Of a DNA stretch of 64,000 bases, positions 41,148-63,052 are shown piece after piece (the stretch's first letter is position 1; the number at the start of each line of letters is the position of its first letter). A program made the translations under genes and the position numbers. The notes beneath the pieces were generated by a model. It was not told the origin of the DNA, made no database searches, and saw only the letters and a list, made by a program, of their open reading frames with translations. The DNA lies in NCBI GenBank assembly GCA_963782055.1, contig CAWAIF010000002.1:160001-224000 (forward strand), given 5' to 3'. Source of the DNA: an uncultured delta proteobacterium (GTDB lineage Bacteria > Myxococcota_A > Polyangia > Polyangiales > Polyangiaceae).

Positions 41148-42065
41148 ATGGCGGCCGAGGCGCACAAGCGATTCCTCATCGTCACGGGCAAGGGCGGCGT
41201 CGGCAAGACGACTGTGTGCGCGGCGCACGCGCTCGCCCTCGCGCAGCAGGGCAAGCGCGTGCTCATCGCCATGTGCAACGCCAAGGAGCGCCTCTCCGCC
41301 ATGCTGGGGAGCGACCTCATCGGGACCGAGGTGATCCAGGCGGCGCCCAACGTGTGGGCGGTGAACATGACGCCGGACGTCGCGCTCGAGGAGTACGGGA
41401 TGCTCGCCCTCAAGTCGAAGACGGTCTACTCCCTGCTCTTCGACAACCGGTACGTGCGGGTCTTCTTCCGGGCGGTGCCCGGCATCCACGAGTGGTCGAT
41501 GCTCGGCAAGGCGTGGTGGCACGCCACCGAGAAGCTGCCCGACGGCCGCGACCGCTTCGACGTGGTGATCCTGGACGCGCCGGCGACGGGCCACGGGCTG
41601 GACATGCTCCGCGTGCCGAAGGTGATCGTGGAGGTGGTGCCGCCGGGGCTTTTGCGCCGCGACGCCGACGCCGCGTGGGCGATGTTCCGCGATCCGGAGC
41701 AGACCGGGGTGGTCCTGGTCACCCTCCCGGAGGAGATGCCGACCACCGAGACGGTGGAGCTCGCGGCGGCGCTCACCGGCGAGCTGGGGATGACGATCGA
41801 CAAGGTGGTGGTCAACTGCGTGCTGCCGCCGCTCTTCTCGCGGGAGGAGCGCGCGACGCTCGAGGGGCTGGCGGAGGTGGAGCCGGTGGACGCCGGGGCC
41901 TCGGCGCTCGTCGCGGCCAGGCTCCGGGCGGTGCGGGAGCACGTGCAGGCGGCCTCGCTCGCCCGGCTGGCGCTGCAGTTGCCGGTGCGCACGGCGTTCC
42001 TGCCGCTCCTCTTCCAGGACGCGGCCACCCCGCAGGCCATCCGGGAGCTCGCGAAGCGGCTCTAG
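41148..42065 (+). CDS. ArsA/GET3-family P-loop ATPase
   Basis: GKGGVGKTT, PGIHE, LDAPATGH, VVVN. Confidence 0.85.
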   Translation: MAAEAHKRFLIVTGKGGVGKTTVCAAHALALAQQGKRVLIAMCNAKERLSAMLGSDLIGTEVIQAAPNVWAVNMTPDVALEEYGMLALKSKTVYSLLFDNRYVRVFFRAVPGIHEWSMLGKAWWHATEKLPDGRDRFDVVILDAPATGHGLDMLRVPKVIVEVVPPGLLRRDADAAWAMFRDPEQTGVVLVTLPEEMPTTETVELAAALTGELGMTIDKVVVNCVLPPLFSREERATLEGLAEVEPVDAGASALVAARLRAVREHVQAASLARLALQLPVRTAFLPLLFQDAATPQAIRELAKRL

Positions 42066-46808: not shown

Positions 46809-47252
46809 CTACCCCGTCCCGCCACCAGCCCGCGCCACGGAGGCGTTGAGGATGGCGGTGCGCAAGTCGTCCAGATCGAAGGGCTTCCAGAACACCGCCG
46901 CCGCGCCGAGCCGCGCCGCGAGCGTGCGCACCGAGCTGTCACGCTGCGCGGTGATCAGCACGACCGGCACGTTCCACCTGGAGCGACGCAGCGTGCTCAG
47001 CACGCCCAGCCCGGAGAAGCCGGGCATCAGCACGTCGGTGACGACCACGTCCGGCCGCCTCAGCGGATGATCGAAGGCGTCGCTCAGCAGCTCCAGCAGC
47101 TCCGCGCCGTCCTTCGCCTCGACGACCTCGTAGCCGTCCGATCGCAGGCCCTCGCCGATGAGGTTGCGCATGTCCTCGTCGTCCTCGGCGAGGAAGATGG
47201 TGGTCGGCCGGCGCGGCGCCGGATCGCGGCCGCGGGTTAGCGGGTACTTCAT
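46809..47252 (-). CDS. Single-domain response regulator
   Basis: LAEDD, VTDVLMP (phospho-Asp), ITA, KPF. Confidence 0.88.
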   Translation of the reverse strand: MKYPLTRGRDPAPRRPTTIFLAEDDEDMRNLIGEGLRSDGYEVVEAKDGAELLELLSDAFDHPLRRPDVVVTDVLMPGFSGLGVLSTLRRSRWNVPVVLITAQRDSSVRTLAARLGAAAVFWKPFDLDDLRTAILNASVARAGGGTG

Positions 47253-47264
47253 GCTCGACGTTCA

Positions 47265-47280
47265 TGCAGGGGGCGTGCCG
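47265..47280 (-). promoter_or_regulatory. Putative sigma54 promoter P1 (for the response regulator)
   Basis: Minus strand reads CGGCACGCCCCCTGCA = GG-N10-GC with GGCACG; ATG lies 14 nt from the -12 C. Confidence 0.65.
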
Positions 47281-47321
47281 CGCGGCGTCCGCGCGTGGGC
47301 TCAACACGAGCATTCGAGCGA

Positions 47322-47336
47322 GTGACTTTTTGCTAC
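47322..47336 (-). promoter_or_regulatory. Putative enhancer (UAS) GTAGC-AAAAA-GTCAC
   Basis: Imperfect palindrome 42 nt upstream of the P1 GG; the same motif recurs at 57279. Confidence 0.55.
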
Positions 47337-47365
47337 ACGTATCGAGATAGCGTGCTACCCCAGAA

Positions 47366-48754
47366 GTGATGATGCGCAGGGTCCTCATCATCGATGACGA
47401 CGAGAGTCTGTGCGAGCTGCTCGCCAGCGGCCTGGCCTCGCGCGGGTTCGACGCGTCCTTCCGGACCGCGCCGTCGGCGGCTCTCGATGCGCTCGCCGCC
47501 GACCACTACGACGCCGTCGTCACCGACCTGCGGATGCGCGAGATGAGCGGCATCGAGCTCTGCGATCGCGTCCTGCTCACCCACCCAGACGTGCCGGTGG
47601 TCCTCATCACGGCCCACGGGGACGTCGACGCCGCGGTGGCCGCGCTCCGCGTCCGCGCCTTCGACTTCCTCTCCAAACCCGTGGACGTGGAGCTGCTCGC
47701 CTCCGTGCTCGCGCGCGCCACCAGCCGCCCCCCGGCGCACCAGGCGCGGCGGCGCTCCCGCCGCAACAAGGGGGCTGACCCGGCCGACGGGCTCATCGGC
47801 GAGAGTGCGCCGATGCAGGCGCTCCGCGCCCTGATGGATCGCGTGGCTCGGGTGGACACCTCGGTGCTCATCGGCGGCGAGACGGGCACGGGCAAGGAGC
47901 TGGTCGCCCGGGGCCTCCACGCGCTGAGCGCGCGCAGCGACGGTCCCTTCGTCGCCATCAACTGCGCGGCCCTGCCGGAGAGCCTGCTCGAGGCGGAGCT
48001 GTTCGGCTACGCCAAGGGCGCCTTCACCGACGCGCGGACGGACCGCTCCGGCCTGTTCGAGCGGGCGCGAGGCGGCACCTTGCTGCTGGACGAGATCGGC
48101 GAGATGCAGCTCGGCCTGCAGCCCAAGCTCCTGCGCGTGCTGCAGGAGCGGGTCGTTCGCCCCGTGGGCAGCGACCGCGAGATCCCCACCGACGTGCGCG
48201 TCATCGCGTCCACCAACCGGGATCTGCAGACCGCCGTCGCGGCGAAGCAGTTCCGCGAGGACCTGTTCTACCGCATCGACGTCATCGAGATCCGCGTCCC
48301 GCCGCTGCGCGAGCGCGGATGCGACGCACTGCTGCTCGCCGCGCACTTCGTCCGGGAGTTCTCCCGCGGGACCGGCAAGTCCATCGAAGGCCTCACGCCC
48401 GGCGCGAGCGAGAAGATCGCCTCGTACACGTGGCCCGGGAACGTCCGGGAGCTGCGCAACTGCATCGAGCGGGCCGTCGCCCTCACCACGGCCGACCGCA
48501 TCGGCCTGGACGACTTCCCCGATCGGGTGCGGCGCGTGCCCTCGCTCCCCGAGACCTCCGAGCTCAGCGAGCTCCTCCCGCTGGTAGAGGTGGAGCACCG
48601 GTACATCCAGCGTGTGCTCGACGCGGCGCACGGCAACAAGAGCCTCGCCGCGCGGATCCTCGGGGTGGACCGCCGCACGCTCTATCGCAGGGAGGAGCAC
48701 CGGCACCTCACCAAGGCGGACGAGCCGGTGGACCTGACGCGCCCCCGGAAATGA
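47366..48754 (+). CDS. Sigma54-dependent response regulator (NtrC family: REC-AAA+-HTH)
   Basis: [47 protein letters not shown], Fis-type HTH. Confidence 0.95.
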
Positions 48755-48824
48755 TTTCGGACGTGTGGCGCTTTTGCACGCAGGTCTCGCCATCCGCGGG
48801 CCGCAAGCTGGCGGAAAGGTGAGA

Positions 48825-48840
48825 GGGCATGAGGGTTGCA
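48825..48840 (+). promoter_or_regulatory. Putative sigma54 promoter P2 (hybrid kinase-gvp operon)
   Basis: GGGCATGAGGGTTGCA = GG-N10-GC matching TGGCACG-N4-TTGCW; in-frame ATG at 48854. Confidence 0.7.
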
Positions 48841-48853
48841 GCCCCGTGGCCGA

Positions 48854-50851
48854 ATGCCCATCCTCGCGCAGCGGTCCGGCACGCGCGTTCTCGTCGTGGC
48901 AAGCGATCCCGCCAAGGCCGACCTCCTTCGCCGCTGCGTGAGAGACGGCAGCGGGGGAACGTTCGAGGCCTGGCAGGTCGACACGACCGCGGGAACCGCC
49001 GAGGCGGCCCAGCAGGCGCGCGCCCACGTGCTGCTGCTGGACCCGGCGAGTGACCGGACCGCCCTCGCGACTGTCCGCGCGAGCGTTCCGGAGCTGCCCA
49101 TCGTGGTGCTCGTCGCGCCCCGCGACTTCGCCTCCAGCGTGCGGTCGCTGCGGACCGACGCCGACGACGTGCTCTTCGAGTGGGAGCTGGAGCCGCACCT
49201 CTTGGTGTGGCGCCTCCGCCTGGCTATCGAGCGTCACGAATCGGAGCGCAAGCTGACCCAGGCTCGCGACCTCGCGGAGAACGCCAACCGTCACAAGTCG
49301 GAGTTCGTCTCGCAGGTGAGCCACGACATCCGCACGCCGATGAACACGGTGCTGGGGATGGCAGAGCTCCTCGGCGAGACCCACCTGACCAAGAAGCAGC
49401 AGCAGTACGTCCAGACGCTGCGGCGCGCCGGCGATCACCTCCTCGCCCTCCTGGACGACGTGCTCGACCTCGCCCGGATCGAGGCGGGACAGATGGAGAT
49501 CGAGGCGACGAGCTTCCGGCTGGGCGAGGTGCTGGAGACGGCGCTCGACCTCGTCCGGGTGCAGGCGACGCGCAAGGGGCTGGCGCTGGAGGTCGACGTC
49601 TCGCCCGACATCCCCGACGCCTTCCGCGGCGATCCGCGCCGGCTGCGGCAGATCCTGGTAAACCTCCTCGCGAACGCGGTGAAGTTCACCGAGCGCGGGT
49701 ATGTGCGCCTCGCGGTGACCGCCGACGGCGGGACGCCCGGCGCCACGGCCCTCCACTTCAGCGTGCAGGACACCGGCATCGGCATCCCCGCCGAGAAGGC
49801 GGACGACATCTTCACGAGCTTCGTGCAGGGAGGAAGGAGCTTCGAGAAGCGCTACGGCGGCGTCGGGCTGGGCCTCGACATCGCGCGTCGCCTCGCGGAG
49901 CTGATGGGAGGCCGCATCTGGGTCGAGAGCACCGGCGGGGGCTCGACGTTCCACGTCAGCCTCGCGCTGCCCACCGAGAGGGGGAGGCCGCGACCCTCAT
50001 TCCCGGACGCCGCCGAGCAGGAGACGGCCCTCTCCGGGCCGGGCGGTCGCCGCCTGAAGGTGCTCCTGGTGGACGACTCGGAGGACAACCGGATGCTGAT
50101 CGCAGCGTACCTGGCCCCCGCCAACGTGGCGCTGGACTACGTGAGCGACGGACCGGAGGCGGTGCGGCGCGTGGAGACCACCGCCTACGACATCGTCCTG
50201 ATGGACCTGCAGCTGCCCACGATGAACGGCTTCGCCGCGACACGTGAGCTCCACGCCGCGGAGCGAGCGCTCGGCCGGCCGCGCACGCCCGTGATCGCGC
50301 TGAGCGCGCACGCGCTTGCCGACACCGTCCTGCGCGCGCAAGAGGCGGGCTGCGCGATGCACCTGGCGAAGCCGATCCGCAAGCGAACGCTGATCGCAGC
50401 GCTCGCTCGGGTCGCCCACGCCATCACCGCCGACCCGGCCGAGGACGTGCCAGTACGCCGCGTGCCCGACGACGCCCTGCGCCTCTTCGGCCGGTTCCTG
50501 CAGAACCGGAGGCGCGATCTCACCGACATCGAGAAGGCGCTCACGAGCGGCGACTTCGACGCGGTGCGGACCCTGGGGCACAACATGCAAGGCACCTGCG
50601 CGGCCTACGGCGTCCCGGAGCTGGGTGAGCTCGGCACGCGGCTGGAGGCGGCGGCCGACCGGCACGACACGCGAGACCTGCGGCGCATGACGGGCGAGCT
50701 CGCCGCGTGCATCGAGCGCGTGACCGCCCAGCACGAGGCCGGGCGCATCGAGGCGTCTCCGCGTCGGACGCGGTCCGGGCTTCGACCGTCCCACCCCGGC
50801 ACGAAGGACGCGGCGCCACCGCACGGCCGCAGAAGGAACGGCGCATCATGA
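48854..50851 (+). CDS. Hybrid histidine kinase: degenerate REC-HisKA-HATPase-REC-Hpt
   Basis: SHDIRTPMN, NLLANAVKFT, DTGIG, GVGLGL, LMDLQLP, Hpt GHNMQG. Confidence 0.9.
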   Translation: MPILAQRSGTRVLVVASDPAKADLLRRCVRDGSGGTFEAWQVDTTAGTAEAAQQARAHVLLLDPASDRTALATVRASVPELPIVVLVAPRDFASSVRSLRTDADDVLFEWELEPHLLVWRLRLAIERHESERKLTQARDLAENANRHKSEFVSQVSHDIRTPMNTVLGMAELLGETHLTKKQQQYVQTLRRAGDHLLALLDDVLDLARIEAGQMEIEATSFRLGEVLETALDLVRVQATRKGLALEVDVSPDIPDAFRGDPRRLRQILVNLLANAVKFTERGYVRLAVTADGGTPGATALHFSVQDTGIGIPAEKADDIFTSFVQGGRSFEKRYGGVGLGLDIARRLAELMGGRIWVESTGGGSTFHVSLALPTERGRPRPSFPDAAEQETALSGPGGRRLKVLLVDDSEDNRMLIAAYLAPANVALDYVSDGPEAVRRVETTAYDIVLMDLQLPTMNGFAATRELHAAERALGRPRTPVIALSAHALADTVLRAQEAGCAMHLAKPIRKRTLIAALARVAHAITADPAEDVPVRRVPDDALRLFGRFLQNRRRDLTDIEKALTSGDFDAVRTLGHNMQGTCAAYGVPELGELGTRLEAAADRHDTRDLRRMTGELAACIERVTAQHEAGRIEASPRRTRSGLRPSHPGTKDAAPPHGRRRNGAS

Positions 50852-51231
50852 GCATGACGGTGCGCTCCTCCGATCGCAACGGCGGCGCCAGCCTGGTCGA
50901 TGTCCTCGACCGTGTCCTCGACAAGGGCCTCGTCGTCGCCGGCGACATTCGCGTCGCCCTGGCGGACGTGGAGCTGTTGACCATCCGCATCCGGCTGATG
51001 ATCTGCTCCATCGACAAGGCGCAGCAGGTGGGCCTGGACTGGTGGCGCCACGATCCGCACTTCGCGCCCGCTGGCAACAAGCTGCTCGGCGGCGACGCCG
51101 CGCTCCGGAAGCAGGTCGCCGCCCTCCAGCGACAGATCGCCAAGCTGGAGAAGGCCGCGACGTCCACCCGCCGCACCCGCTCATCGTCACCGAAGACATC
51201 GAAGAGAAAGAAGACGCGCCATGCCGATTGA
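50848..51231 (+). CDS. gvpJ: Gas vesicle protein, GvpA/J family (GvpJ-like)
   Basis: [39 protein letters not shown], coiled coil, basic tail. Confidence 0.85.
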
Positions 51232-51538
51232 ACGCAGCTCCGGCGGAACCAACCTGATCGACGTGCTGGACCGCGTCCTCGACAAGGGCATCGTGATCGA
51301 TGCCTGGCTGCGCGTACAGCTCGTGGGCATCGATCTGCTGACCGTGGAGGCCCGCGTCGTGGTCGCTTCGATCGACACGTACCTGAAGTACTCCGAGGCC
51401 GTCGGCGGGGCGGGCGCCGCCGCGCGGCCCACGCTTCCCGCCGCCCAGGTGCCGGAGTCCCTGCCGGCGCCGAAGCCGAAGCCGCGGACGCGTGCTCGGG
51501 CGAAGACCACCACGAAGACGAGGGCGCGCAGGACGTGA
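51221..51538 (+). CDS. gvpA: Gas vesicle major structural protein with basic C-terminal extension
   Basis: [51 protein letters not shown]. Confidence 0.93.
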
Positions 51539-53682
51539 GCAGCCCCGCGGTCGTCGCCTCCGCCACCAGGAACGGCGCGCCCCCCACGACTCATCGGGGC
51601 GAGGCCAGCGGCCGCATGCTGCTCTTGCAGTCGCTGCTCGCGGCGGAGACGGTGACCGAGGCGGCGCGTCGCGTCGTCGAGTACCTCCACACACACGTCG
51701 GCGCGAGGCGGGTGGTCTACCTCGGGACCCACGACGCCGATGCCCGCCTGCAGGGGCTCGCCTCACGCGGCGTGGACGAAGCGCACGCGCTGGCGCTGGA
51801 GGTCGACCTGGACGTCGGCACTCACCCGCTGCTGCGCACGCTCTCGCCGCGGAGTCCCACTCCGGTCGAGATCCCCGACCTCGCGCGGCTCTTTCCGGGT
51901 GGTCGGCTGATGGTGACGCCGGTGCCGCTTCCCCTGACGCGGGTGGGGGAGCCCCTCGCGCTCCTGCTCACCGAGCCGCGCGCCGCGCTGGAGGAGGAGC
52001 TCGGCTGGGTGGCCTGCGTGCTGGGGCCGGAGCTGGCGCGCGCTCGCCGGCACGAGGATCTGAGCCGCGCCTACGCCGGAGCCCAGCGCGACGTGGCCCT
52101 GATGCGGGGGGTCCTCGATGCGGTGCCCGAGCCGGTGCTGCTTGCCGACGGCGACAGCAACGTGCTGCTCGCCAACTCTGACGCCGCGCTCTACTTCGCC
52201 TCGCCGGAGGAGGGGAGCAGCGAGGGGAGGCGGCGCGCGCTCGCGCTCAACCGGATGCTCCTCTCCGCCGTGCTCGCCAGCACCCGCAGCGCGGGGACGC
52301 AGATCCGGGAGGTGGCCGTCGTCGACCCGAGCGACGGGTCCGACCGCCTCTTCGAGCTGATCGCCGCGCACACCTCCACCGTGGCCGGCGAGGGCACCGT
52401 CGCGGTGCTCCGTAACGTGTCCGATCTCCACTCCGCGATGCGCGAGATCACCGAGAACTACCGTCGCCTGCGCGTGGCCGAGGCCGACGTCCGCGCCGAG
52501 CGCGACAGGCTGGACCTGATCATCGACTCGGTGGCCGACCCGATCATCGTCACCGGCATGCGGGGTGTGCCGCTGCGGATGAACCGCCCGGCGGAGGGGC
52601 TCCTCACGGCGGACCCCGACGCCTCCCCCGCGCGCGCGCAGCGCGTGCGCACCAACGACGCGCGCCTCTCCTCGCACGTGTCCAACGTCTTCTTCACGCC
52701 GGAGCCGCGCGTGCGCGGCGACCTCGACCTGCTCGACCCCGCCGGCATGCGCGACCTGCCGATGGAGGCGGTGAGCCGCAAGCTGATGTCGGCGCACGGG
52801 GAGGTGGCGGCGGTGGTCACCATCCTGCACGACCGCACCGAGGCGGAGGAGAAGCAGCGGCTCAACGAGCAGCTCGAGCAGGCGACGGCGCAGCTGGAGA
52901 AGAAGGTGCAGGAGGCGACGATCGAGCTCGTGAAGCAGAACGAGCTCCTGCGCCGCCAGCACATCCAGCTCGAGCAGGCCTCGAGCCTGAAGAGCCAGTT
53001 CCTCGCGACGATGTCGCACGAGTTCCGCACGCCGCTGAACGCCATCCTCGGCTACACGAGCATGCTGCTCGACAACATTTACGGGGCCCCGCCGCCGCGG
53101 CAGATCCGCTGCCTCGAGCGCGTGGACTCCAACGCCCGGCACCTGCTGGCGATCATCAACGACATCCTGGACATCTCCCGCATCGAGGCGGGCAGCATGC
53201 CGATCCACAGGTCCACGTTCGATGTCGGGAAGCTCTTGACGGAGGTCCTCTCCGAGGTGCGCCCGCTCGTGGCGCGCGACCGCGTCAAGGTGGAGCTCGC
53301 CGTCTCGTCGCGCCTGCCACGCCTGCGGACCGACCGCGCCAAGGTGAAGCAGATCCTGGTCAACCTGCTCTCCAACGCCTTCAAGTTCACCGCGGCCGGG
53401 ACCGTCGCCATCTCCGCGCGCCTCTCACCGCGAGGTCGGTGGTTGCACGTCGCCGTCGCCGACACCGGCGTGGGCGTCGCGCCGGAGGACGCCGAGGTGA
53501 TCTTCCAGGACTTCCGGCAAGCGGACAACTCCACCACCCGGCGCTTCGGCGGCACCGGGCTCGGCCTCGCCATCTCCCGGCGCCTGGCGGAGGTCCTCGG
53601 CGGCCGCATCAAGCTGGTCAGCGAGCTCGGGCAGGGCTCCACCTTCACCCTGATCCTCCCCCGGCGGCGGAGGTCGTCGTGA
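51535..53682 (+). CDS. Cytoplasmic sensor histidine kinase (GAF-like + two PAS-like domains)
   Basis: Two LD(A/S)VxxP(V/I) PAS starts, [33 protein letters not shown]; no TM helix seen. Confidence 0.9.
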
Positions 53683-54116
53683 AACGAGCGGCAGCGAGCG
53701 GCACCTCCCGGCGGCGTCGGGGTCGGTGCGTGCTGGTGGTCGACGACTTCGACGACAACCGCGAGATGTACGCCGAGTACCTCCAGCAGGCGGGGTACCA
53801 CGTGATCCAGGCCGCCGACGGGAAGTCCGCCGTTCAGCTCGCCACCGAGGCGCGCCCGGACCTCGTCGTCATGGACCTCTCCCTCCCGGTGATGGACGGC
53901 TGGGAGGCGACGCGCCTGTTGAAGGCCGACCCACGCACTCGCCGCATTCCGGTCATCGCCCTGACGGGGCACGCGCTCGCGGGGCACTCGCAGGGGGCGC
54001 GGGACGCGGGGTGCGACGAGTTTCTCACCAAACCATGCCTGCCGCGCGCCCTGGTCGACGCGGTGGAGCGGATGCTCGCGCCTCGCGGACGTGGGCGGAA
54101 AGGAGCGTCAGCATGA
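53679..54116 (+). CDS. Single-domain response regulator (DivK/CheY-like)
   Basis: VVDD, VMDLSLPVMDGWEA, ALTGHA, TKP. GTGA overlap. Confidence 0.9.
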   Translation: MKRAAASGTSRRRRGRCVLVVDDFDDNREMYAEYLQQAGYHVIQAADGKSAVQLATEARPDLVVMDLSLPVMDGWEATRLLKADPRTRRIPVIALTGHALAGHSQGARDAGCDEFLTKPCLPRALVDAVERMLAPRGRGRKGASA

Positions 54117-54985
54117 GCAGGAGAACGGCGCGCACCCCGGAGAAGGCCAAGGCGGTGCTGCCCGTCCGTCCCAGGGCGGAGTCGTGGCCCGAGGAAGCGA
54201 CGACGGCGAAGCACCGCGTGCTAAAAGAGCGCGGCGAAGCGCGCGGGCGCTACGTGTACTGCGTCATCGGCTCGACCGGCCACAAGACCTTCGGTCCCAT
54301 CGGCGTCGGCGTGGAGCCGGCGGAGGTCCACACCGTGCGCTTCAAGGACATCGCCGCCGTCACGTCGGACACGCCCATCGAGGTCCACGAGCCGACACGC
54401 CACAACATCCTGGCCCACGAGCGCGTGAACGAGGCGGTCATGCGGGAGCACACCGTCATCCCCATGTCCTTCGGCACCGTCTTCAAGACCGACGACGATA
54501 TCCTGGAGCTGCTCCGCTCCGCGTACGACGCGTTCAAGGACGTGCTCGTCAAGATGGAGGACAAGCTGGAGTACGGCCTCAAGGTGCTCTGGGACCGCGA
54601 CCAGATCGTCCACGCGCTGGAGCTGGAGGACGAGGACATCCGGCGCCTGCGCGCCGAGATCCTCTCCCAGAACGGGTCGACGTACTTCGCGCGCATGCAG
54701 TACGGGCGGCTCGTCGAGGCGGCCCTCGAGACGCGGTGCGAGCGCTACGTCCGCGAGATCTTCGACGAGCTCCGGCCGGTCTCCATCGCCTCGCGCGTGA
54801 ACAAGCCCATCGGTGACAGGATGATCATGAACGCCGCGTTCCTGGTGAGCCGCGAGCGGGAGGCGAAGTTCGACGCCCGCGTCAAGGCGCTCGGCGCCGC
54901 CTACGACAAGCTGACCTTCCGCTACACGGGACCCTGGCCGCCCTACAACTTCGTCAACATCCGGCTGAAGCTGGAGAAGGCGTGA
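54113..54985 (+). CDS. gvpF: Gas vesicle protein GvpF (GvpL/F family)
   Basis: YVYCVI, HERV, VIPMSFGTVF, EYGLK, NAAFLV, TGPWPPYNFV. Confidence 0.88.
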   Translation: MSRRTARTPEKAKAVLPVRPRAESWPEEATTAKHRVLKERGEARGRYVYCVIGSTGHKTFGPIGVGVEPAEVHTVRFKDIAAVTSDTPIEVHEPTRHNILAHERVNEAVMREHTVIPMSFGTVFKTDDDILELLRSAYDAFKDVLVKMEDKLEYGLKVLWDRDQIVHALELEDEDIRRLRAEILSQNGSTYFARMQYGRLVEAALETRCERYVREIFDELRPVSIASRVNKPIGDRMIMNAAFLVSREREAKFDARVKALGAAYDKLTFRYTGPWPPYNFVNIRLKLEKA

Positions 54986-55320
54986 GCATGCTCGTCATCG
55001 ACAGGATGCTGGCCTCCGGTCTGGGGTTCGTGATGCGCCGCATCGCCGAGGCCGCCGACGCTGCGTCCGACCCGACCACCGCCTTGCACGCGGGGTTGCT
55101 GGACGCGCAGGCGAGCCTGGAGCGCAACGAGATCACCGAGGCGGAGTACGAAGCCATCGAGGCGGATCTGCTGGCCGAGCTGCACGAGCGACGGCGAAGC
55201 GAGCGGCCGGCCGTGCTCTCCCACGTGACCGTGGACGTGATCGAGACCCCGCCGGAAGTCGGCGAGAAAGGAGCGCACCATGCCCCGCCGAAGCGCAAGG
55301 CCCGCAAGCGCCGCGTCTGA
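54982..55320 (+). CDS. gvpG: Gas vesicle protein GvpG
   Basis: GLGFVMRRI...LERNEITEAEYEAIEADLLAEL pattern; position after gvpF. Confidence 0.75.
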   Translation: MSMLVIDRMLASGLGFVMRRIAEAADAASDPTTALHAGLLDAQASLERNEITEAEYEAIEADLLAELHERRRSERPAVLSHVTVDVIETPPEVGEKGAHHAPPKRKARKRRV

Positions 55321-56065
55321 CGCGGACGTCGCGACCTACCTCTACTGCGTGGTGGAGGCCCCGCGCATCGACCTCGCGGGCGTCCCGCGCGGCCTGCCCG
55401 GCGCAGGAAAGCCCCGCGCGGAGCCGCTGAAGCCCGGACGGTGGATGATCGTGTGCGACGCGCCGCTCGCCCGCTACGGGCCGGAGGCCATCGAGCGCGC
55501 CACGAGCGAGCTCCGGTGGGTGGCGACCGCGGCGGTCAAGCACTCCGAGGTGGTCTCCTTCTTCGCGCGCGATCTCCCCGTCGTGCCGATGAAGATGTTC
55601 ACACTCTTCTCCGACGACCGGCGCGCCACGCGGGCGCTGCTACGCAAGGGACAATCCATCGACCGTACCTTGAAGCACATTCGCGGCTGCGCCGAATGGG
55701 GCGTCCACATCCTCCCGGCGCCGCGTCGTGCTGCCGCGCGTCGCGCCCCGGCGCCGCGCAGCGGCCGCGCCTTCCTCGTTGCGAAGCGGGAGAAGCTCGC
55801 CGGGGCGCGTGACGATCGCGCTCACCAGCGCGCCGAGGCCCTGCGCGCGCTGGGGGATCTGGAGTCGCTGTCGCGCGCCGCGCAGATGCGCGAGGCGCAG
55901 GCCGCGACGGGACCGGTGGTGGACGGCGTCCTGCTGGTGCCGAACGCGGCGAAGGCGCGGCTCGCCGCGCGCTGCGACCGATGGCGCGAGCAGCTCCAGA
56001 AGCGGGGCCTGTCCCTCCGCGTGACCGGTCCCTGGCCCTGCTACCACTTCGTGGGGGCACGATGA
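55280..56065 (+). CDS. gvpL: Gas vesicle protein, GvpL/F family
   Basis: YLYCVV, HSEVV, VVPMKMFTLF, EWGV, SGRAFL, TGPWPCYHFV. Confidence 0.82.
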   Translation: MPRRSARPASAASDADVATYLYCVVEAPRIDLAGVPRGLPGAGKPRAEPLKPGRWMIVCDAPLARYGPEAIERATSELRWVATAAVKHSEVVSFFARDLPVVPMKMFTLFSDDRRATRALLRKGQSIDRTLKHIRGCAEWGVHILPAPRRAAARRAPAPRSGRAFLVAKREKLAGARDDRAHQRAEALRALGDLESLSRAAQMREAQAATGPVVDGVLLVPNAAKARLAARCDRWREQLQKRGLSLRVTGPWPCYHFVGAR

Positions 56066-56274
56066 GCCCGGCGCGTGCCGCGCCACGCCGGCGGAGCGCC
56101 GCGGACCTCTCGCTCGCCCGCCAGGGGACCCTCCTCGACCTGCTGGATCACGTCCTCGACAAGGGCGTCGTGCTGCAGGGCGATCTGGTGATCTCCGTCG
56201 CCGACGTCGAGCTGGTCTACGTTCGCCTCTCGGCGCTGCTGTGCGGGATGTCATCGCTGGCGAGGAGGCGCTGA
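56062..56274 (+). CDS. Small GvpA-family accessory protein (GvpS/GvpM-like)
   Basis: TLLDLLDHVLDKGVVLQGDLVISVADVELVYVRLSALL. Confidence 0.85.
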   Translation: MSPARAAPRRRSAADLSLARQGTLLDLLDHVLDKGVVLQGDLVISVADVELVYVRLSALLCGMSSLARRR

Positions 56275-56897
56275 TGCTGGCCCTGGTCGCGCTCCTCCGC
56301 GCCGACGACGCCGAGCTCGCGCGCGCCCTCGGGTTCGGCGCGACGGTCGTGCGCGCGGCGTGCGTGGTGCACCGCACGGTTCGCCGCCCCGACGGGCCGA
56401 CGGCCGCGGCGGCGATCCGTCACGACCGTGCCGTGCGGCGGCTCATGTCGCGGGCCACCGCGGTGCTGCCGATGCGCCTCGGCGTCACCGTGAAGGACGC
56501 CGGCGCTCTCCCGGCGCTCCTCGGCTCCCATGACGGCGCCGTCGCCGCGCGCCTGGCGGCGGTGGAGGGCCGCGTGCAGATGACCCTCCGCGTCTACCGG
56601 GGCCCCGGCGCCGCGAGGCGCGTCACCGGAGGTCGGGGGACCCGGTACCTGGCGCGTCGCGGCGCGGAGACCGCCTTCGTCGCGCGCGCGCGCCAGGAGC
56701 TCGGAGCTGCGGTCGCCGACGAGGTGATCGAGCACCACTCCATCGAGCCGCTGCTGGCGAGCGTGTATCACCTGGTGGACAGGGGGCGCGCCGCGGCGTA
56801 CCGCGCCGGTGTCCGCCGGGTCGCGCGCGCGCACCCGGAGGTGCGCGTGGCGGCCAGCGGTCCGTGGGCCCCGTACGCCTTCTGCGCCCTGGAGTGA
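56274..56897 (+). CDS. Third, shortened GvpL/F-family protein
   Basis: HDRAV, VLPMRLG, GTRYL, YHLV, SGPWAPYAF. TGATG overlap. Confidence 0.78.
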   Translation: MLALVALLRADDAELARALGFGATVVRAACVVHRTVRRPDGPTAAAAIRHDRAVRRLMSRATAVLPMRLGVTVKDAGALPALLGSHDGAVAARLAAVEGRVQMTLRVYRGPGAARRVTGGRGTRYLARRGAETAFVARARQELGAAVADEVIEHHSIEPLLASVYHLVDRGRAAAYRAGVRRVARAHPEVRVAASGPWAPYAFCALE

Positions 56898-56900
56898 CCG

Positions 56901-57254
56901 ATGGCGGCCCGGCAATCCACCCTCGTTCGCAAGGCCCGCAGGCGCGAGATCGACGCGCTGCGACACGAGGTCACGCGCAAGAAACGCGGCCGGCTGCGCA
57001 TCGACGCCGACCCCGGCGACGTGGAGCGCTCGCTGGCGCGCCTGGTGCTCTCGCTGGTAGAGCTGCTCCGCGAGCTGATGGAGCGCGAGGCCATCCGCCG
57101 GCTGGACGGCGGCGATCTCACGCCCGACGAGATCGAGGCGGTGGGGACGGCGCTGATGCGTCTGGAGAAGGCCGTGCGCACCCTCGCCCGGCGGTTCGGC
57201 CTCAAGCCGGGCGATCTCAACCTGGACCTCGGGCCGCTCGGCCGCCTGCGCTGA
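56901..57254 (+). CDS. gvpK: Gas vesicle protein GvpK
   Basis: LARLVLSLVELLRELMEREAIRR, LNLDLGPLGRL. Confidence 0.92.
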   Translation: MAARQSTLVRKARRREIDALRHEVTRKKRGRLRIDADPGDVERSLARLVLSLVELLRELMEREAIRRLDGGDLTPDEIEAVGTALMRLEKAVRTLARRFGLKPGDLNLDLGPLGRLR

Positions 57255-57278
57255 CCGTCGTGGCGTGCGCGCACCCGC

Positions 57279-57293
57279 GTAGCGGAATGTCAC
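57279..57293 (+). promoter_or_regulatory. Putative enhancer (UAS) GTAGC-GGAAT-GTCAC
   Basis: Same half-sites and orientation as the site at 47322-47336; 41 nt upstream of the P3 GG. Confidence 0.55.
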
Positions 57294-57333
57294 GATCCCC
57301 GCCCGTCGTCGGACTATCCCGGTCCGTGTAGCG

Positions 57334-57349
57334 AGGCACATGCATTGCA
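57334..57349 (+). promoter_or_regulatory. Putative sigma54 promoter P3 (kinase-globin gene)
   Basis: AGGCACATGCATTGCA = GGCAC-N5-TTGCA; ATG at 57365. Confidence 0.75.
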
Positions 57350-57364
57350 GCGGTCTCTCCGTCC

Positions 57365-59665
57365 ATGGTCCCTGCCGAAGCGGGTGAAGGTGCCGCGTGG
57401 ACGCCGCCGTCGAGGATGGACGGCTTCGAGCTCGTCGAGCTGCTGGGCGAAGGCGGCATGGGCCGCGTCTACCTCGCGCGGGAGCGCTCGCTCGACAGGC
57501 TGGTGGCGATCAAGTTCATGACGGTCGCCCCGACCATGCCCGGCGCCCGCGCCCGCTTCCGGGCCGAGGCGCGCGCGCTCGCACGGCTGAATCACCCCAA
57601 CGTGGTCGGGGTCTATCGCTTCAACGAGGTGGAGGGCAGGCCGTACATCGCCTACGAGTACGTGCGCGGCAAGAGCCTGGACCGAATCGCCAAGCCGATC
57701 CGGTGGACGGCGAGCCTGGTCATCGCGGCGTCGGTCGCGCGGGGCCTCGCTGCCGTGCATCGCGCCGGCCTGCTGCACAGAGACATCAAGCCGGCCAACG
57801 TGATGGTGGCCGCGACGGGCGCGGTGAAGCTGGTCGACTTCGGCCTGGCGCGTCTCGCCGATGCGGAGGGGCGCTGGAGTCCCGACAGCGAGGAGTCTCC
57901 GGAGGCCGCGCTGGCGCTGTCCTTCGACGATCTGGTCGAGGCCGGGGCCCACGCCTCCGCCGTGGCCCGCGGGTCGGCCGTGTCGCGTGGCATGCGAACG
58001 GCCTCCAACCTCGCCGTCGGGACCCCGCGCTACTGGGCCCCGGAGCAGTGGCTGGGCGGGGAGGCCGACGCGAAGAGCGACGTCTACGCGCTGGGTCTGG
58101 TGATCTACGAGATGGTCACCGGGACGGCGCCGTTCGCCGATGTGGCCGGGGACGATCTGATGCACGCCGTGCTGGAGGTGGGTGTGCCTCGCGTCCAGCA
58201 CGACTCCGTCCCGGAGGCCTTCGGCGCGATCATCGACCGCTGCCTCCGGCGTGACCCGCGCGAGCGGTGGGACACCGCCACCGATCTCGCCCGCGCGCTC
58301 CTCCAGCTCCAGCGCGTCTTCGTGGCCGCGACGCCGGAGGCGCTCACCCGACCGTTGAACGACGAGGCCGCAATCGTCGCGGCGTCGTGGTCGCGCCTCC
58401 TGCCGTGGCGCGCGGCGCTGATCGCGCGCGTCTACCGCGAACTCTTCGCGGCGCACCCGGAAGTCCGCGCGCTCTTCCCCCTGGATCTCGCCGCGCAGCA
58501 GGCGAAGCTCACCCACGCCCTCGATCTCACGTTGCAGGGACTCCACGAGCCCGACGCCGTGGCGCCGATGCTCCGGGAGCTGGGCAGCCGTCACGTCGAC
58601 TACCACGTCGAGCCGCGCCACCTGGAGATGCTGGGCAAGGCATTGCTGGACGCCCTGCCCGTCTTCGACCGCAAGTGGGACGAGGCGACACGCCAGGCGT
58701 GGAAGCACGGCTACACCTTCATCGCCGCCACGATGTGCGCCGGGATGGCGAGTCACACCGAGCCAGTCGCCATTCCCCGCACGCCACCGCCCGCCGGCTC
58801 CCCGCATCCGGCGCCCCTCGCGGTGATGCCACCCGCGCAGTACGCCTCCGACGGCAACGTGGTCTATGCGGAGCTGGGAAAGGGACCGCCGGCGCTGGTC
58901 TTGTTGCCCGGTCGTGTCACGCACCTGGAGATGACCTGGTCGCACCCCGCGCCCGTCTGGCTCCTCGCCCAGCTCGCCGCGTTCTCCCGCGTCGTGCTCC
59001 TCGACCTGCGCGGCACCGGCATGGCCGATCGCATCCCGGACCCGACGGTGGAGGACGGCGTGCAGGACATTCTCTCCGTCATGGACGCCGCGCACATCGA
59101 CCGCGCGGTGCTCGTCGGCGCGGGCGACGCCGGGCCGATCGCCGTGTCGGCCGCCGCCGCGCACCCCGATCGAACCGCCGCGCTGGTGCTGGTCGGGTCG
59201 ACGCCGCGGCCCGCCTGGGCAGAAGACTTCCCCTTCGGGCGCACGAGGGCGGCGTTCGACGAGGCGTACAAGGAAGCCGCGGAGCACTGGGGGACGGCCT
59301 CCCACGTCGCGCGGGAGAACCCGGCGGCGGCGCGTGACAGGACCTTCTGCGAGTGGCTCGCCTCCTACCAGCGCATCGCCGCGGGCCGGCGCCGGGCGCT
59401 CGCGCTGCTGCGCGTCGCCGAGGAGCCCGACGTGCGCGCGCTGCTCCCGGCGGTGCAGGCGCCCACGCTGGTGCTTCACCGGGTCGGCGATCCGGTCTTC
59501 CCCGGGGCCGTCGGTCGCTTCATCGCCGAGCGCGTGCCGCACGGGCGGTACCTGGAGCTGCCCGGCAGCGACCACTGCATCTTCGCCGGTGACAGCGCCG
59601 AGCTCGCCCGCGCCATCGAGCGCTTCGTGGCCGGCCTCTCGGCCACGGCCCCCGCCGGATGCTGA
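57365..59665 (+). CDS. Ser/Thr kinase - globin - alpha/beta hydrolase-fold fusion protein
   Basis: Kinase: GEGGMG, VAIK, HRDIKPAN, DFG, GTPRYWAPE. Globin: VYRELF..HPEVRALF..QQAKL..LGSRHVDY..W. Hydrolase fold: DLRGTGMAD, PTLVLH, PGSDH. Confidence 0.88.
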   Translation: MVPAEAGEGAAWTPPSRMDGFELVELLGEGGMGRVYLARERSLDRLVAIKFMTVAPTMPGARARFRAEARALARLNHPNVVGVYRFNEVEGRPYIAYEYVRGKSLDRIAKPIRWTASLVIAASVARGLAAVHRAGLLHRDIKPANVMVAATGAVKLVDFGLARLADAEGRWSPDSEESPEAALALSFDDLVEAGAHASAVARGSAVSRGMRTASNLAVGTPRYWAPEQWLGGEADAKSDVYALGLVIYEMVTGTAPFADVAGDDLMHAVLEVGVPRVQHDSVPEAFGAIIDRCLRRDPRERWDTATDLARALLQLQRVFVAATPEALTRPLNDEAAIVAASWSRLLPWRAALIARVYRELFAAHPEVRALFPLDLAAQQAKLTHALDLTLQGLHEPDAVAPMLRELGSRHVDYHVEPRHLEMLGKALLDALPVFDRKWDEATRQAWKHGYTFIAATMCAGMASHTEPVAIPRTPPPAGSPHPAPLAVMPPAQYASDGNVVYAELGKGPPALVLLPGRVTHLEMTWSHPAPVWLLAQLAAFSRVVLLDLRGTGMADRIPDPTVEDGVQDILSVMDAAHIDRAVLVGAGDAGPIAVSAAAAHPDRTAALVLVGSTPRPAWAEDFPFGRTRAAFDEAYKEAAEHWGTASHVARENPAAARDRTFCEWLASYQRIAAGRRRALALLRVAEEPDVRALLPAVQAPTLVLHRVGDPVFPGAVGRFIAERVPHGRYLELPGSDHCIFAGDSAELARAIERFVAGLSATAPAGC

Positions 59666-60180: not shown

Positions 60181-60543
60181 TCACCGGCGCGTGGTGTGGA
60201 GGCCGACGTGGTTTCCCTCCGTGTCGGCGACGATGGCGTACAGGCCCATCTCCCCGATGTCGGTCTTGGGAACGACGACCGAGCCGCCCGCGGTGGTCAC
60301 GCGGCCGAGGGCGGCGTCCAGCTCCGGCGCGTCGAGGTACACCACGCTCCCGGGCCCGGGAGCGCGACGCGGGTCGGCGACGAGCGCGCCGCTCACGTCG
60401 GCGTTGAGGCGCCGGGCGAAGATGGCGTGCGGGACGCCGGCGAAGTCCTCCCGCTTGAGGGACACGCCGAGGACCTTCTCGTAGAAGCGGGCGGCGCGGT
60501 CGATGTCGGCGACGGGGATCTCGAACCAGTTGATGACGCTCAT
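60181..60543 (-). CDS. VOC/glyoxalase-family protein
   Basis: AGGAG RBS, WFEIPVADIDRAARFY, GGSVVVPKTDI, DTEGNHVGL. Confidence 0.9.
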   Translation of the reverse strand: MSVINWFEIPVADIDRAARFYEKVLGVSLKREDFAGVPHAIFARRLNADVSGALVADPRRAPGPGSVVYLDAPELDAALGRVTTAGGSVVVPKTDIGEMGLYAIVADTEGNHVGLHTTRR

Positions 60544-60606
60544 GGTGGCTCCTTCTCCTGCGGACCGCGACGGCGGCCCGACGAGAGGCACCCTAGCCCC
60601 GGGCGT

Positions 60607-60622
60607 TGACAGCCTTCTGTCA
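60607..60622. promoter_or_regulatory. Palindromic operator TGACAG-CCTT-CTGTCA upstream of the VOC gene
   Basis: Perfect 6-bp arms; overlaps the stop codon of the adjacent HTH-WYL regulator. Confidence 0.65.
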
Positions 60623-61261
60623 GGTTTGTTTGGTCTCCACCACCGCGTGCTCGATGCGGTCGAAGCGCAGCGGCAGGGGCTCCCCGCTCTCGGCCTCGTG
60701 TCCGAGCAGCACGATCATCGTGCGCTCCATGGTGGCGCCGGCGAGGCGCACGCGCCGCCGCTCCAGCTCGCCGTGCGAGTTGCGGTAGCGCACGGCGAGG
60801 ACGCTGCCCTCGAACCACGCCGACTCCACCGCGCGACGCACCGCAGGAGGCGGCGCCAGCACCGGCACCCCCACGAACCGGAGCCTGTCCATGTGGCCGA
60901 GCAGCTCGCGCTGCGCGGACGTGCCGAGCGCCGCGCGCACCTTGTCGAGCGCGCGCTGCAGCGCCTCCGGGAACGGGAGCGATCGCATCTCCACCGCGTG
61001 CCGGACGAGGCTCGCCAGCACCGCCGCCTCGCGCGCGGTGAAGTTGACGGGCGGGAGCGCGTAGCTCTTGTCGAGCGCGTAGCCCCCGCCGCGTCCACGG
61101 TCCGCCTGCACGGGGAGCGCCGCGTCGCGCAGCGTGTCCAGGTCGCGGTAGATGGTGCGCACCGTGACCCCGAACCGCTCCGCGAGCATCTCGGCCGTGA
61201 CGCCGGTGCGCCGCCCGCGCAGGTACTCGGCGATGGCAAAGAGGCGCGCCTGTCGTCGCAC
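60620..61261 (-). CDS. YafY-type wHTH-WYL transcriptional regulator
   Basis: RLFAI, LAERFGVTVRTIYRDL, GRGGGY, LPPVNFT, degenerate WYL (ERRRV...RFDRI). Confidence 0.88.
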   Translation of the reverse strand: MRRQARLFAIAEYLRGRRTGVTAEMLAERFGVTVRTIYRDLDTLRDAALPVQADRGRGGGYALDKSYALPPVNFTAREAAVLASLVRHAVEMRSLPFPEALQRALDKVRAALGTSAQRELLGHMDRLRFVGVPVLAPPPAVRRAVESAWFEGSVLAVRYRNSHGELERRRVRLAGATMERTMIVLLGHEAESGEPLPLRFDRIEHAVVETKQT

Positions 61262-61423
61262 CCCGCCATCCTACCGCGCCCTTCGCTCGCGTGATGCTAC
61301 GCGCGCCTGAAACGCCGGAGCGCCGCGAGATCGAGGGCACGCCTGGCCGAGCATCCGCTTCGGCGCCGGGACCGAGGCGGCGATGTGACGCCTGTCGAGC
61401 GGGCGGCGCGTTGCCGGCCCCTG

Positions 61424-63052
61424 TCAGTAAACGGGCGGCTGCACCTTCAGCGAGAGCGGCGTGTTCGCCTGCGAGAAGACGTTGTCCAGCTCGCCGTCGA
61501 CGACGCGCATCGGGTCGTAGGCGTTCTCCCCCCAGGGCAGGTCGATGCGCATGTCGCCCAGCGCGGTCCTGTACGAGGGCTGCTTGCCGGACAGGAGCGC
61601 GAGCAGGAAGTCCGCCGTCGCCTCGCCGCCGCCCCACACGTACGAGGGCGATCCGTTGACCACGATCTCCAGGTTCCGGGAGCCGCCCGGCTTCATGCGC
61701 AGAAAGTCCTCGTGGTAGTAGTTGTACGAGAGGCAGCTGTTCACGAGCATGATCTGGTAGCGGTCGTTGAAGTTCTGCGGCCCGTACAGCGTCGGCTCCA
61801 GCGGCCCGTGGCCGAAGTGCGAGTGGCCGTTGTAGAGGAAGACGTCGCCGTACCAGAAGGCCTCCAGGTAGCGCCACTGGGCGTGCTGGCGCGCCTCGGG
61901 GGAGCCATCCTCGTAGCCGTAGAAGCTCCGCACCTCCACGGTGAGGTTCTTCGTCGTGCCGCCGTCGCTCACCACCACGGGCAGGTCCCAGTCGATCCAC
62001 CGCTCGGCGAGCTTGCTCATCACCTGCCGGCGCAGGTCGGCGATCTTCGCCTTGTCGTTGCCCACCTCCGGCGGGTAGCCCTTCTTGTCCAGCACCCAGC
62101 GGAACATGTCGTCGTAGGTGACGTTCTGCAGCTTCTGCCCGTCCACCCAGAAGTCGAGCAGCATGGTGAAGGGGTCCGTCTTCACCGGCCGGAAGTTGGG
62201 CTGGCCGTCCAGCATCCTGCGCAGGAAGCGCACCGCCTCCTGGCCGAGGATGTCGTCCGGGTCGTTCTCGTCGGTGTCGACGCCGGAGAAGGCGTACACG
62301 ACGAGGGTGGACCGGGAGTCGTCGTGCAGGGCGAAGAGGCGGTCGTACTCCGGCGAGAAGTCGTGGTTGGGGGTGTTCGCCGCGCCCAGCTTGGCGGTCA
62401 CCGGGGCGAACCAGCGGCCGGCCTCGCTCGGGCCGACGGCGCCGGGGTGCTTCGCAAGCTTCGCCTGCTCCGACTGCACGCGCGCCGCCTCGTCCTGCAC
62501 CAGCGTCTCGCAGGACGGGAGCGATGGCTGGAAGTGGTACCAGAGGGAGTCCACGTCGGTGGTGGTGTCGTCGGAGCAGTCCTGGATCAGCTCGCCCGGG
62601 TGGGCCGCGTAGTCATCCGCCAGCATCACGAAGTCGATCGCGCTGCGGTTGGCGAGCGTCCTGGTGACCACGGCCTTGTCGACGTAGTCGAAGGAGACCT
62701 TGAGCACCTGCCGCGTGACGGCCTGGGTGTCGGGGTCGAGGACGTCCACCAGGGCGCGCGTCCACTTGGAGGGGTCCAGGTTGGACTGCGCGCCGCGGTC
62801 GTCGAAGGCGACCTTGGTGTCGCGCAGCGCTCCGAGCGCCGACTTGATCTGCCGCGCGATGGCGAGCTGGATGTCGGAGTCGGAGGTGCCCGGGTCGACG
62901 TAGACGTACGAGGAGAAGGAAACCGGGCGCTCCACCGAGGTGGTGCCGGTGAGGTCCGACGACCCGGACGCGCCGTCGGACGGCGGGGCAGAGCAGGCGG
63001 CGGCGCCCGCGGCGAGGACAAGCACCCAGACCCAGCGTGACAGCGGCGACAT
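61424..63052 (-). CDS. Hypothetical lipoprotein with possible His/Cys peptidase-like C-terminal domain
   Basis: GGAGG RBS, lipobox AAAC, VFLYNGHS and MLVNSC motifs. Confidence 0.7.
   Translation of the reverse strand: MSPLSRWVWVLVLAAGAAACSAPPSDGASGSSDLTGTTSVERPVSFSSYVYVDPGTSDSDIQLAIARQIKSALGALRDTKVAFDDRGAQSNLDPSKWTRALVDVLDPDTQAVTRQVLKVSFDYVDKAVVTRTLANRSAIDFVMLADDYAAHPGELIQDCSDDTTTDVDSLWYHFQPSLPSCETLVQDEAARVQSEQAKLAKHPGAVGPSEAGRWFAPVTAKLGAANTPNHDFSPEYDRLFALHDDSRSTLVVYAFSGVDTDENDPDDILGQEAVRFLRRMLDGQPNFRPVKTDPFTMLLDFWVDGQKLQNVTYDDMFRWVLDKKGYPPEVGNDKAKIADLRRQVMSKLAERWIDWDLPVVVSDGGTTKNLTVEVRSFYGYEDGSPEARQHAQWRYLEAFWYGDVFLYNGHSHFGHGPLEPTLYGPQNFNDRYQIMLVNSCLSYNYYHEDFLRMKPGGSRNLEIVVNGSPSYVWGGGEATADFLLALLSGKQPSYRTALGDMRIDLPWGENAYDPMRVVDGELDNVFSQANTPLSLKVQPPVY

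Follow-up and report, generated by a model that had tools for sequence, protein, structure and literature searches.

A gas vesicle operon joined to a host kinase gene, next to a globin-coupled Ser/Thr kinase, in a myxobacterium: a likely one-off rewiring

Does a block of gas vesicle (gvp) genes that contains its own phosphorelay, and that lies beside the gene of a globin-coupled Ser/Thr kinase, tie the sensing of oxygen or nitric oxide to flotation? This question is raised by positions 46809 to 59665 of the stretch of DNA analysed here, the window (64 kb, G000:C2:160001-224000), which comes from a genome (G000) of 7.6 Mb that is 97% complete. An earlier note on this DNA had read the block as a candidate undescribed system coupling the two. 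We find instead that it is likely a one-off rewiring and not a conserved oxygen-to-flotation circuit, for which there is little comparative support; the related genomes examined never combine these parts. The reading we prefer, with a probability of roughly 0.6, is that the block is a composite which, of the lineages examined, only this one has: a lineage-specific promoter capture, predicted to yield bicones at most, in which an ATPase-less copy of a widespread gvp operon is fused behind a host hybrid-kinase gene.

The layout described in the earlier note holds throughout. All 14 genes lie where it placed them (Pfam), and from the hybrid kinase to gvpK (48854-57254) each junction, taken one by one, is an overlap or a gap of at most 3 nucleotides (nt). 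Its guess at a myxobacterial host agrees with RecA, whose named relatives are Polyangiaceae, Pendulispora and Myxococcales at 79-86% identity. The block consists of three modules, namely the gvp operon, a sigma54 front end and the globin kinase, and neither a match in an Rfam search nor a sigma70 promoter or terminator on the plus strand between 46500 and 60500 was found.

The gvp operon in relatives and in this genome

The arrangement gvpJ-gvpA-GAF/PAS/PAS kinase-receiver-gvpF-G-L-S-L-K is conserved as an operon in Myxococcota, Acidobacteriota and Rokubacteria. Our comparison set holds 94 loci, made up of five from named genomes (Rokubacteria, three Vicinamibacterales and Pyxidicoccus), the best 80 of 527 metagenome matches, and nine genomes of the order. 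The scan of named genomes gave at least six loci among the matches listed, with L037, a partial match without gvp genes, left out, and a search of the order found this operon type in 11 of 401 genomes, G000 and the unpublished G506 included, the latter bearing on no other statement here. Counting only loci with room, gvpA lies immediately 5' of the PAS kinase in 78 of 82 (79 with the second copy in L035), the receiver directly follows the kinase in 69/69, and gvpF follows the receiver in 50 of 53. The operon starts with gvpJ in relatives, and a two-domain ArsA/Get3 ATPase stands between gvpF and gvpL in 24 of the 27 loci that span both. As such, the kinase-receiver pair that the earlier note saw inside the operon is an old part of it. 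In the accessible literature on gas vesicles in myxobacteria, Anaeromyxobacter, Sandaracinus, Acidobacteria and Rokubacteria, this operon with its kinase was not found.

Several relatives deserve mention in their own right. Pyxidicoccus caerfyrddinensis CA032A (L036:9739-13484) has the PAS kinase and receiver with a diverged gvpA-like gene and gvpF, and no further gvp match in 21 kb. In two lineages (L074, L098, L112, L129, L134, L144; L032, L135-L149) the operon is flanked by repair and stress genes, encoding UvrA, uracil-DNA glycosylase, DUF72, an ATP-dependent ligase, an alkyltransferase and a low-affinity iron permease, which may be host synteny. Other members of the phylum carry clusters that do contain gvpN (G119:C13, G175:C8, G425:C110, G194:C31 and G162). 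A sigma54 activator adjoins three of these five, and the phylum thus has two unrelated types of gvp cluster; no match to the PAS region was found in seven regions of this other type.

In the host genome all ten operon genes are full length and without frameshift (Table 1). The accessory proteins GvpJ, S/M, F, L, G and K are all present, and the operon encodes three PF00741 and three GvpL/GvpF proteins. GvpA scores 107.4 bits against NCBIfam PRK09371 (cut-off 100), as a canonical GvpA does, and matches the solved GvpA structures 8GBS (E 6.5e-24) and 7R1C. Arg/Lys-rich tails occur on GvpJ, GvpA, GvpF, GvpG, GvpK and the receiver (window 50848-57254), and most of them recur in relatives. The PAS kinase, with 1823 homologs among 8000 scored candidates, is modelled by AlphaFold as GAF-like, PAS and PAS (pLDDT 87) and folds like PAS-array sensors at 9-16% identity, its matches to DosP, FixL and LOV proteins being generic only. 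A heme-PAS sensor was considered and rejected: several members of the family, this kinase among them, have another residue for the His of the second PAS helix, and with that His not conserved the kinase is no evident heme sensor. It would signal to its receiver, which has no DNA-binding domain and would probably act on assembly by protein contact, so that the pair probably works after transcription.

This copy has no recognizable ATPase for elongation. GvpN was not found over the cut-off in the block or the genome (best 45 bits versus 266.8), nor in any of the five same-type carriers examined, and the same model was positive in 5/5 other-type clusters of the phylum. An ArsA of the gvp type is likewise absent from block and genome, without a tblastn hit and with a best score of 87 bits versus 814-940 for members; between gvpF and gvpL there is no space for it, as gvpG overlaps gvpL, and the abutting block holds no free reading frame for GvpC. 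It should be noted that gvpN mutants of Serratia form bicones and fail to float (PMC4982088, section 7), which leads us to predict bicones at most here, and flotation without an elongation ATPase seems doubtful. Furthermore, no other copy departs from the conserved columns as much as this one does in the kinase (33/245), gvpG (12/26), gvpA (5/52) and gvpJ (4/48); those of the operon receiver (0/49) and gvpS (0/10) are unchanged. In a quick tree its PAS kinase clusters with same-family copies (SH-aLRT 99) on a long branch, 1.28 versus a median of 0.13. A recent foreign island is not supported, given that GC content and GC content at third codon positions (GC3, 0.86-0.96) match those of the host, and that the kinase groups with same-family copies.

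The sigma54 front end and its origin in the host

The earlier note had taken the sigma54 front end for a part of the operon, and this did not survive comparison with congeners that carry no gvp genes. Both the receiver and the hybrid kinase, with their sigma54 sites, are of host origin. While gvpK occurs in 0/6 congeners, four of the six have the receiver(s) and hybrid kinase, and a fifth has the kinase alone on a short contig. In three of these four the set lies between aldehyde dehydrogenase and mrp genes, and the congeners' sigma54 sites are at the same places as in the window. Searched with the kinase of the congeners, which there precedes mrp/NUBPL, the genome gives the hybrid kinase of the window as its best match. 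Since congeners without gvp have the same kinase, receiver and sigma54 sites, the host genes brought the promoter with them, and the operon was joined on behind.

The stop codon of the hybrid kinase overlaps the start of gvpJ, and through this fusion the operon is likely transcribed from the sigma54 promoter of the kinase gene. The gvpJ of this window has neither a sigma70-like -10 motif nor a sigma54 site of its own. In relatives, a sigma54 site lies within 250 nt upstream of gvpJ in 1 of 69 loci, where it overlaps the start codon; a -10-like sigma70 motif is present in 59/67, counted with a motif list chosen after the sequences had been seen, and the sigma70 score of 30 out of 61 distinct upstream regions attains a level which 16% of shuffles also attain.

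The sites were located with GGCAY-N5-YTGCW, which we take to be the sigma54 -24/-12 consensus. It has only three matches in the 64 kb, each facing a gene from within an intergenic gap of about 100 nt (47279 on the minus strand, 48826 and 57335 on the plus strand), and the statement that sigma54-type promoters stand directly before three units is thus confirmed at the level of sequence; none precedes the activator gene itself. Genome-wide the motif occurs 100 times, and a spacing of 5 is not enriched over other spacings, which means that the evidence lies in position and not in the motif alone. The genome does have rpoN. At all three sites the first ATG is only 27-30 nt below the -24 GG, so either the leaders would be very short or the real starts lie further down. 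Grouped in one clade with the activator are a second, paralogous gene of G000 and copies from congeners and from genus g58, those of g58 lying near gvp; any sigma54 activator at all is found within 7 kb upstream in 14 of the 28 loci with room, 11 of these 14 coming from two lineages.

Upstream of these sites, the three promoters carry GTGTAGCAAAAAGTCAC, GTGTGGCGCTTTTGCAC and GCGTAGCGGAATGTCAC, a candidate activator-binding element whose distances from the -24 GG are given in Table 1. The element of the globin kinase is identical to that of the receiver at 13/17 positions, and null triples attained the weighted score of the shared element in 1, 5 and 1 of 600 cases. An element common to three promoters makes local co-regulation likely, and the earlier claim that the three units are co-regulated in this genome has in this way become probable. 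More precisely, the element supports one regulon for the receiver and kinase-gvp promoters and is suggestive of the same for the globin kinase. In such a regulon, a phosphorelay, probably by way of the REC and Hpt of the hybrid kinase, would switch on the adjacent activator or its paralog, which would bind the element and give rise to three transcripts: receiver, kinase-gvp and probably globin kinase. The NmpR regulon (PMC11841059) was tried as an alternative and rejected, as all three promoters are without the NmpR-type core GCGCA-N5-TGCGC, which is present at 10 of the 100 genome sigma54 sites.

Table 1. Features of the block, in window coordinates. Element ranks come from a matrix built from four congener elements that were picked by likeness.
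Feature	Position	Strand	Remarks
Single-domain receiver, host gene	46809..47252	-	PF00072; orthologs 62-69% identical adjoin the hybrid kinase in 4 congeners without gvp
Sigma54-type -24/-12 site of receiver gene	47265..47279	-	same site in G004, G005, G001
Candidate activator-binding element, 17 bp, receiver promoter	47322..47338	-	ends 42 nt above -24 GG; rank 2/100
REC-AAA+-HTH sigma54 activator	47366..48754	+	Pfam REC-Sigma54_activat-HTH_8
Candidate activator-binding element, 17 bp, kinase-gvp promoter	48763..48779	+	ends 46 nt above -24 GG; rank 1/100, 1/1472
Sigma54-type site ahead of hybrid kinase-gvp unit	48826..48840	+	counterpart before orthologous kinase in G004, G005, G001
Hybrid kinase, host gene	48854..50851	+	degenerate N-terminal receiver-like part, HisKA, HATPase, REC, Hpt
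gvpJ	50848..51231	+	PF00741; full length compared with relatives
gvpA, major shell protein, basic tail	51221..51538	+	PF00741
GAF-like/PAS/PAS histidine kinase, cytoplasmic	51535..53682	+	HisKA-HATPase, weak PAS hits (Pfam)
Single-domain receiver, partner of PAS kinase	53679..54116	+	Pfam; without DNA-binding domain
gvpF	54113..54985	+	PF06386; 61-78% identity to same-type copies, 44% in L036
gvpG, strongly diverged	54982..55320	+	PF05120; ArsA ATPase comes next in relatives
gvpL	55280..56065	+	PF06386
gvpS/M	56062..56274	+	PF00741; halo_gas_GvpM match below cut-off
Second gvpL/F	56274..56897	+	PF06386
gvpK	56901..57254	+	PF05121
Candidate activator-binding element, 17 bp, globin kinase promoter, weaker	57277..57293	+	ends 41 nt above -24 GG; rank 10/100
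Sigma54-type site of globin kinase gene	57335..57349	+	sole strict match in window
Ser/Thr kinase - F-family globin - alpha/beta-hydrolase-like fusion	57365..59665	+	Pkinase-Globin-Abhydrolase_1 (Pfam)

Beyond the block, the window contains a glyoxalase-family gene adjoining an HTH_11/PafC-type regulator (60184-61270, minus strand), and a reading frame of 542 residues without Pfam match (61424-63052, minus strand) whose DNA is 77-79% identical in three congeners.

The globin kinase and the choice between explanations

The protein encoded downstream of gvpK has intact kinase motifs (K50, H138-R139-D140, D158-F159-G160) in a PknB fold. Its globin is internal (residues 355-457), with best solved matches in the F family (3WFW, 3S1I and Vitreoscilla haemoglobin), and keeps Tyr357, Phe371, Gln378 and the proximal His410, which we take as the pocket residues; His410 and Tyr357 are present in 22/22 aligned members, Phe371 and Gln378 in at least 90%. 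At what we take, from the elbow motif, to be the nucleophile position of the hydrolase, this protein has a Gly near residue 587 and only 2 of 22 members have a Ser, with Asp709 and His737 kept here. The C-terminal domain scores 148.5 bits against LipJ (cut-off 800), and no solved structure matched the hydrolase part at E 1e-12. The protein has no S-family or protoglobin domain at its N-terminus, not being among the PF11563 matches of the genome. The protoglobin genes of the genome (G000:C2:410808 and C3:4196448) lie elsewhere, away from the block; the second adjoins a sigma54 activator, and they resemble NmpU/NmpR-type pairs. At G000:C3:4383116-4383640 (minus strand) the genome encodes a free globin of the F family, whose gene has a sigma54-type site at 4383625 and, above that, an NmpR-type site with two mismatches; a congener has two convergent globin-like reading frames (G002:C104:5605-6421).

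A search of the ESM Atlas returned kinase clusters only, and a word-indexed homolog search with the globin region returned only the protein itself and one flavohemoprotein. The idea that the gene is a singleton was rejected when a full HMMER search showed a family, with matches in 28 of the 300 host-family genomes (three over part of the query only) and in 3 of 400 genomes of the phylum. All 31 hits picked for spanning both domains have the globin, 30 with a kinase match. A description of this family was not found in the accessible literature on globins with Ser/Thr kinases; subscription surveys fell outside it and may list the family.

If the globin kinase were part of a conserved oxygen- or nitric oxide-responsive vesicle system, the two should travel together, and the earlier note had itself set synteny in relatives as the test of its claim. 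No such synteny was found. There is no globin match in the 94 gvp loci, no Ser/Thr kinase downstream of gvpK in the 18 loci that extend at least 2.5 kb past it, and no PF00741 gene in the 28 same-family carriers of the globin kinase, in a search that was positive in G000, G455 and G501. Where both are present, in G455 and G501, they lie 2.7-2.9 Mb apart, and PF00042 matches in 14 carrier genomes are on other contigs than gvp or megabases distant.

The usual neighbour of the globin kinase is another one: in 9 of 14 regions it is an AAA+-HTH activator with an FHA-like N-terminus and an atypical GAFTGA loop, seven of these nine regions having built the profile, and Pfam recognizes FHA in only 1/7 (E 0.019). 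These pairs are found at L193:8111-12372, L194, L196, L217, L219, L221, L222, L223 and L225. A free globin adjoins the kinase in 5 of 14 regions. The kinase with its FHA-like activator is a candidate for a gas-sensing Ser/Thr kinase module of Myxococcota, judged from sequence. In the host, the copy of this activator is split over two frames, through pseudogenization or sequencing error (G000:C3:6952145-6953398), and no kinase or globin match was found near it. The globin would bind heme and tune the kinase, whose usual target is probably the FHA-like activator and not the Gvp proteins. In this wiring the globin kinase would then be an output of the regulon and not its demonstrated input. Of all that the block contains, only the globin would tie its signal to oxygen, and the globin sits downstream.

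If the globin kinase sensed oxygen or nitric oxide and, together with the phosphorelay and the sigma54 activator, turned on vesicles for flotation, such an integrated circuit would make sense of the adjacency, the shared strand, the sigma54 site and 17-bp element at all three promoters, and the retained globin residues, and oxygen status is known to affect gvp transcription in Serratia (PMC4982088). We nevertheless hold it to be improbable, given the lack of synteny and co-occurrence, the place of the globin kinase downstream of the promoter system instead of upstream, an activator that is controlled by REC and has no FHA domain, the missing NmpR-type oxygen-regulon site, a PAS kinase that is no evident heme sensor, and the absent elongation ATPase. 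It is likewise improbable, as a conjecture of our own, that a gas-sensing switch has been newly built, with the heme Ser/Thr kinase recruited from its FHA-activator partner under the same sigma54 promoter and gating ATPase-free vesicle assembly by oxygen- or nitric oxide-dependent phosphorylation of Gvp proteins.

Could the gvp block instead be a decaying passenger, left behind the host promoter by rearrangement, making no vesicles, and with the element of the globin kinase there by chance? The loss of ArsA and of the native promoter, the long branch, the changes in gvpG and the rank of that element all speak for this. Yet 8.4 kb of coupled genes without stop or frameshift, a host-like GC3, the receiver and gvpS unchanged at conserved columns, and L035, which also has no ArsA and has gvpF and gvpL joined within ~1 kb, do not look like decay, and we regard it as unlikely, if worth keeping in mind. 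Very unlikely, finally, are complete vesicles powered by an ATPase of the host, with sigma54 stress control likewise from the host. The block does have all eight shell and assembly genes, and a single-domain ArsA-family ATPase is encoded 4.7 kb from the block (window 41148-42065, plus strand); this protein reaches only the 87 bits mentioned above on the gvp-type profile and has several equally distant paralogs, and replacement of GvpN by ArsA was not found in the accessible literature.

Promoter capture behind the host kinase gene remains our preferred reading, and we must take into account several points that weigh against it. The 17-bp element was first spotted by eye, and the elements of relatives were chosen by likeness to it; its unweighted score was reached by 56, 12 and 2 of 600 null triples. 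Elsewhere no sigma54 site stands ahead of the globin kinase (0/13 homologs with upstream DNA), and the presence here of such a site, with an element at matching distance, suggests that co-expression was selected for. Four g58 genomes and L072 have a same-clade activator 2-3.5 kb upstream of gvpJ, and the link between activator and gvp may therefore be older than this lineage, although no sigma54 site faces gvpJ in them. Ten full-length genes and a receiver unchanged at conserved columns indicate that the operon has been maintained, and it may have a larger role than we predict; in a genome that is 97% complete the absent ATPase might still exist; and the loci of the comparison set are non-independent, many of them short.

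If promoter capture is the true account, the locus would be a clean natural case of it, with a minimal eight-gene gvp set without ATPase. It would allow a test of what the GvpN-less clusters of non-floaters build, a question that is open for Streptomyces-type clusters (PMC4982088), and bears on whether an ArsA/Get3 ATPase does the job of GvpN. The larger lead is the globin kinase family with its recurring FHA-like activator.

Comparison with known systems

Clusters of gvp genes with a two-domain ArsA homologue have been in print since 2010, as cluster 6 of Castillo and Saier from Acidobacteria bacterium Ellin345 (PMC2963123). Like that cluster, the operon has gvpJ, K, M, at least two L/F genes and no gvpN; unlike it, this copy has no two-domain ArsA, which the relatives of the operon do carry. 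The embedded kinase-receiver pair finds no mention in the available text of that paper, where 'histidine kinase' occurs 0 times.

The locus of Serratia sp. ATCC 39006, with its regulators GvrA, GvrB and GvrC (Tashiro et al. 2016, PMC4982088), already places a sigma54 activator, a kinase and a regulator inside a gvp locus. Both loci combine an NtrC-like sigma54 activator and other regulators with a sigma54 site before the gvpA unit, and both have three GvpA-family and three GvpF/L genes. Here, however, gvpN is missing and the block has no room for gvpC, V, H or Z, one fused unit takes the place of two operons, and the sigma54 part is borrowed from the host. Regulators of the Serratia type are not a conserved part of the present cluster, as seen from the 1/69 loci with a sigma54 site before gvpJ and from the front end in gvp-less congeners. 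With the cryptic gvpOAFG-JLSK cluster of Streptomyces coelicolor, a non-floater (PMC4982088, PMC9501494), the operon shares its gvpN-less core, and differs from it in a GvpA that passes the canonical model and in the embedded two-component pair; gvpO gave no match here, in a search whose control was silent too.

In the globin kinase, the C-terminal match to LipJ-like hydrolases/cyclases and the PknB-like kinase fold are familiar parts, and what sets it apart is the globin inserted between them and the loss of the nucleophile Ser in 20/22 members of the family. Like AfGcHK and NmpRSTU of Myxococcus xanthus (PMC7475203, PMC11841059), it joins a globin and a kinase in one myxobacterial protein, with a sigma54 activator and a hybrid kinase encoded close by. 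Unlike them, it has an F-family globin after a Ser/Thr kinase and not one before a histidine kinase, under promoters without NmpR site. The available review literature on globin sensors places S-family globins before the output domain; an F-family globin that follows a Ser/Thr kinase would link gas to phosphorylation by a different route.

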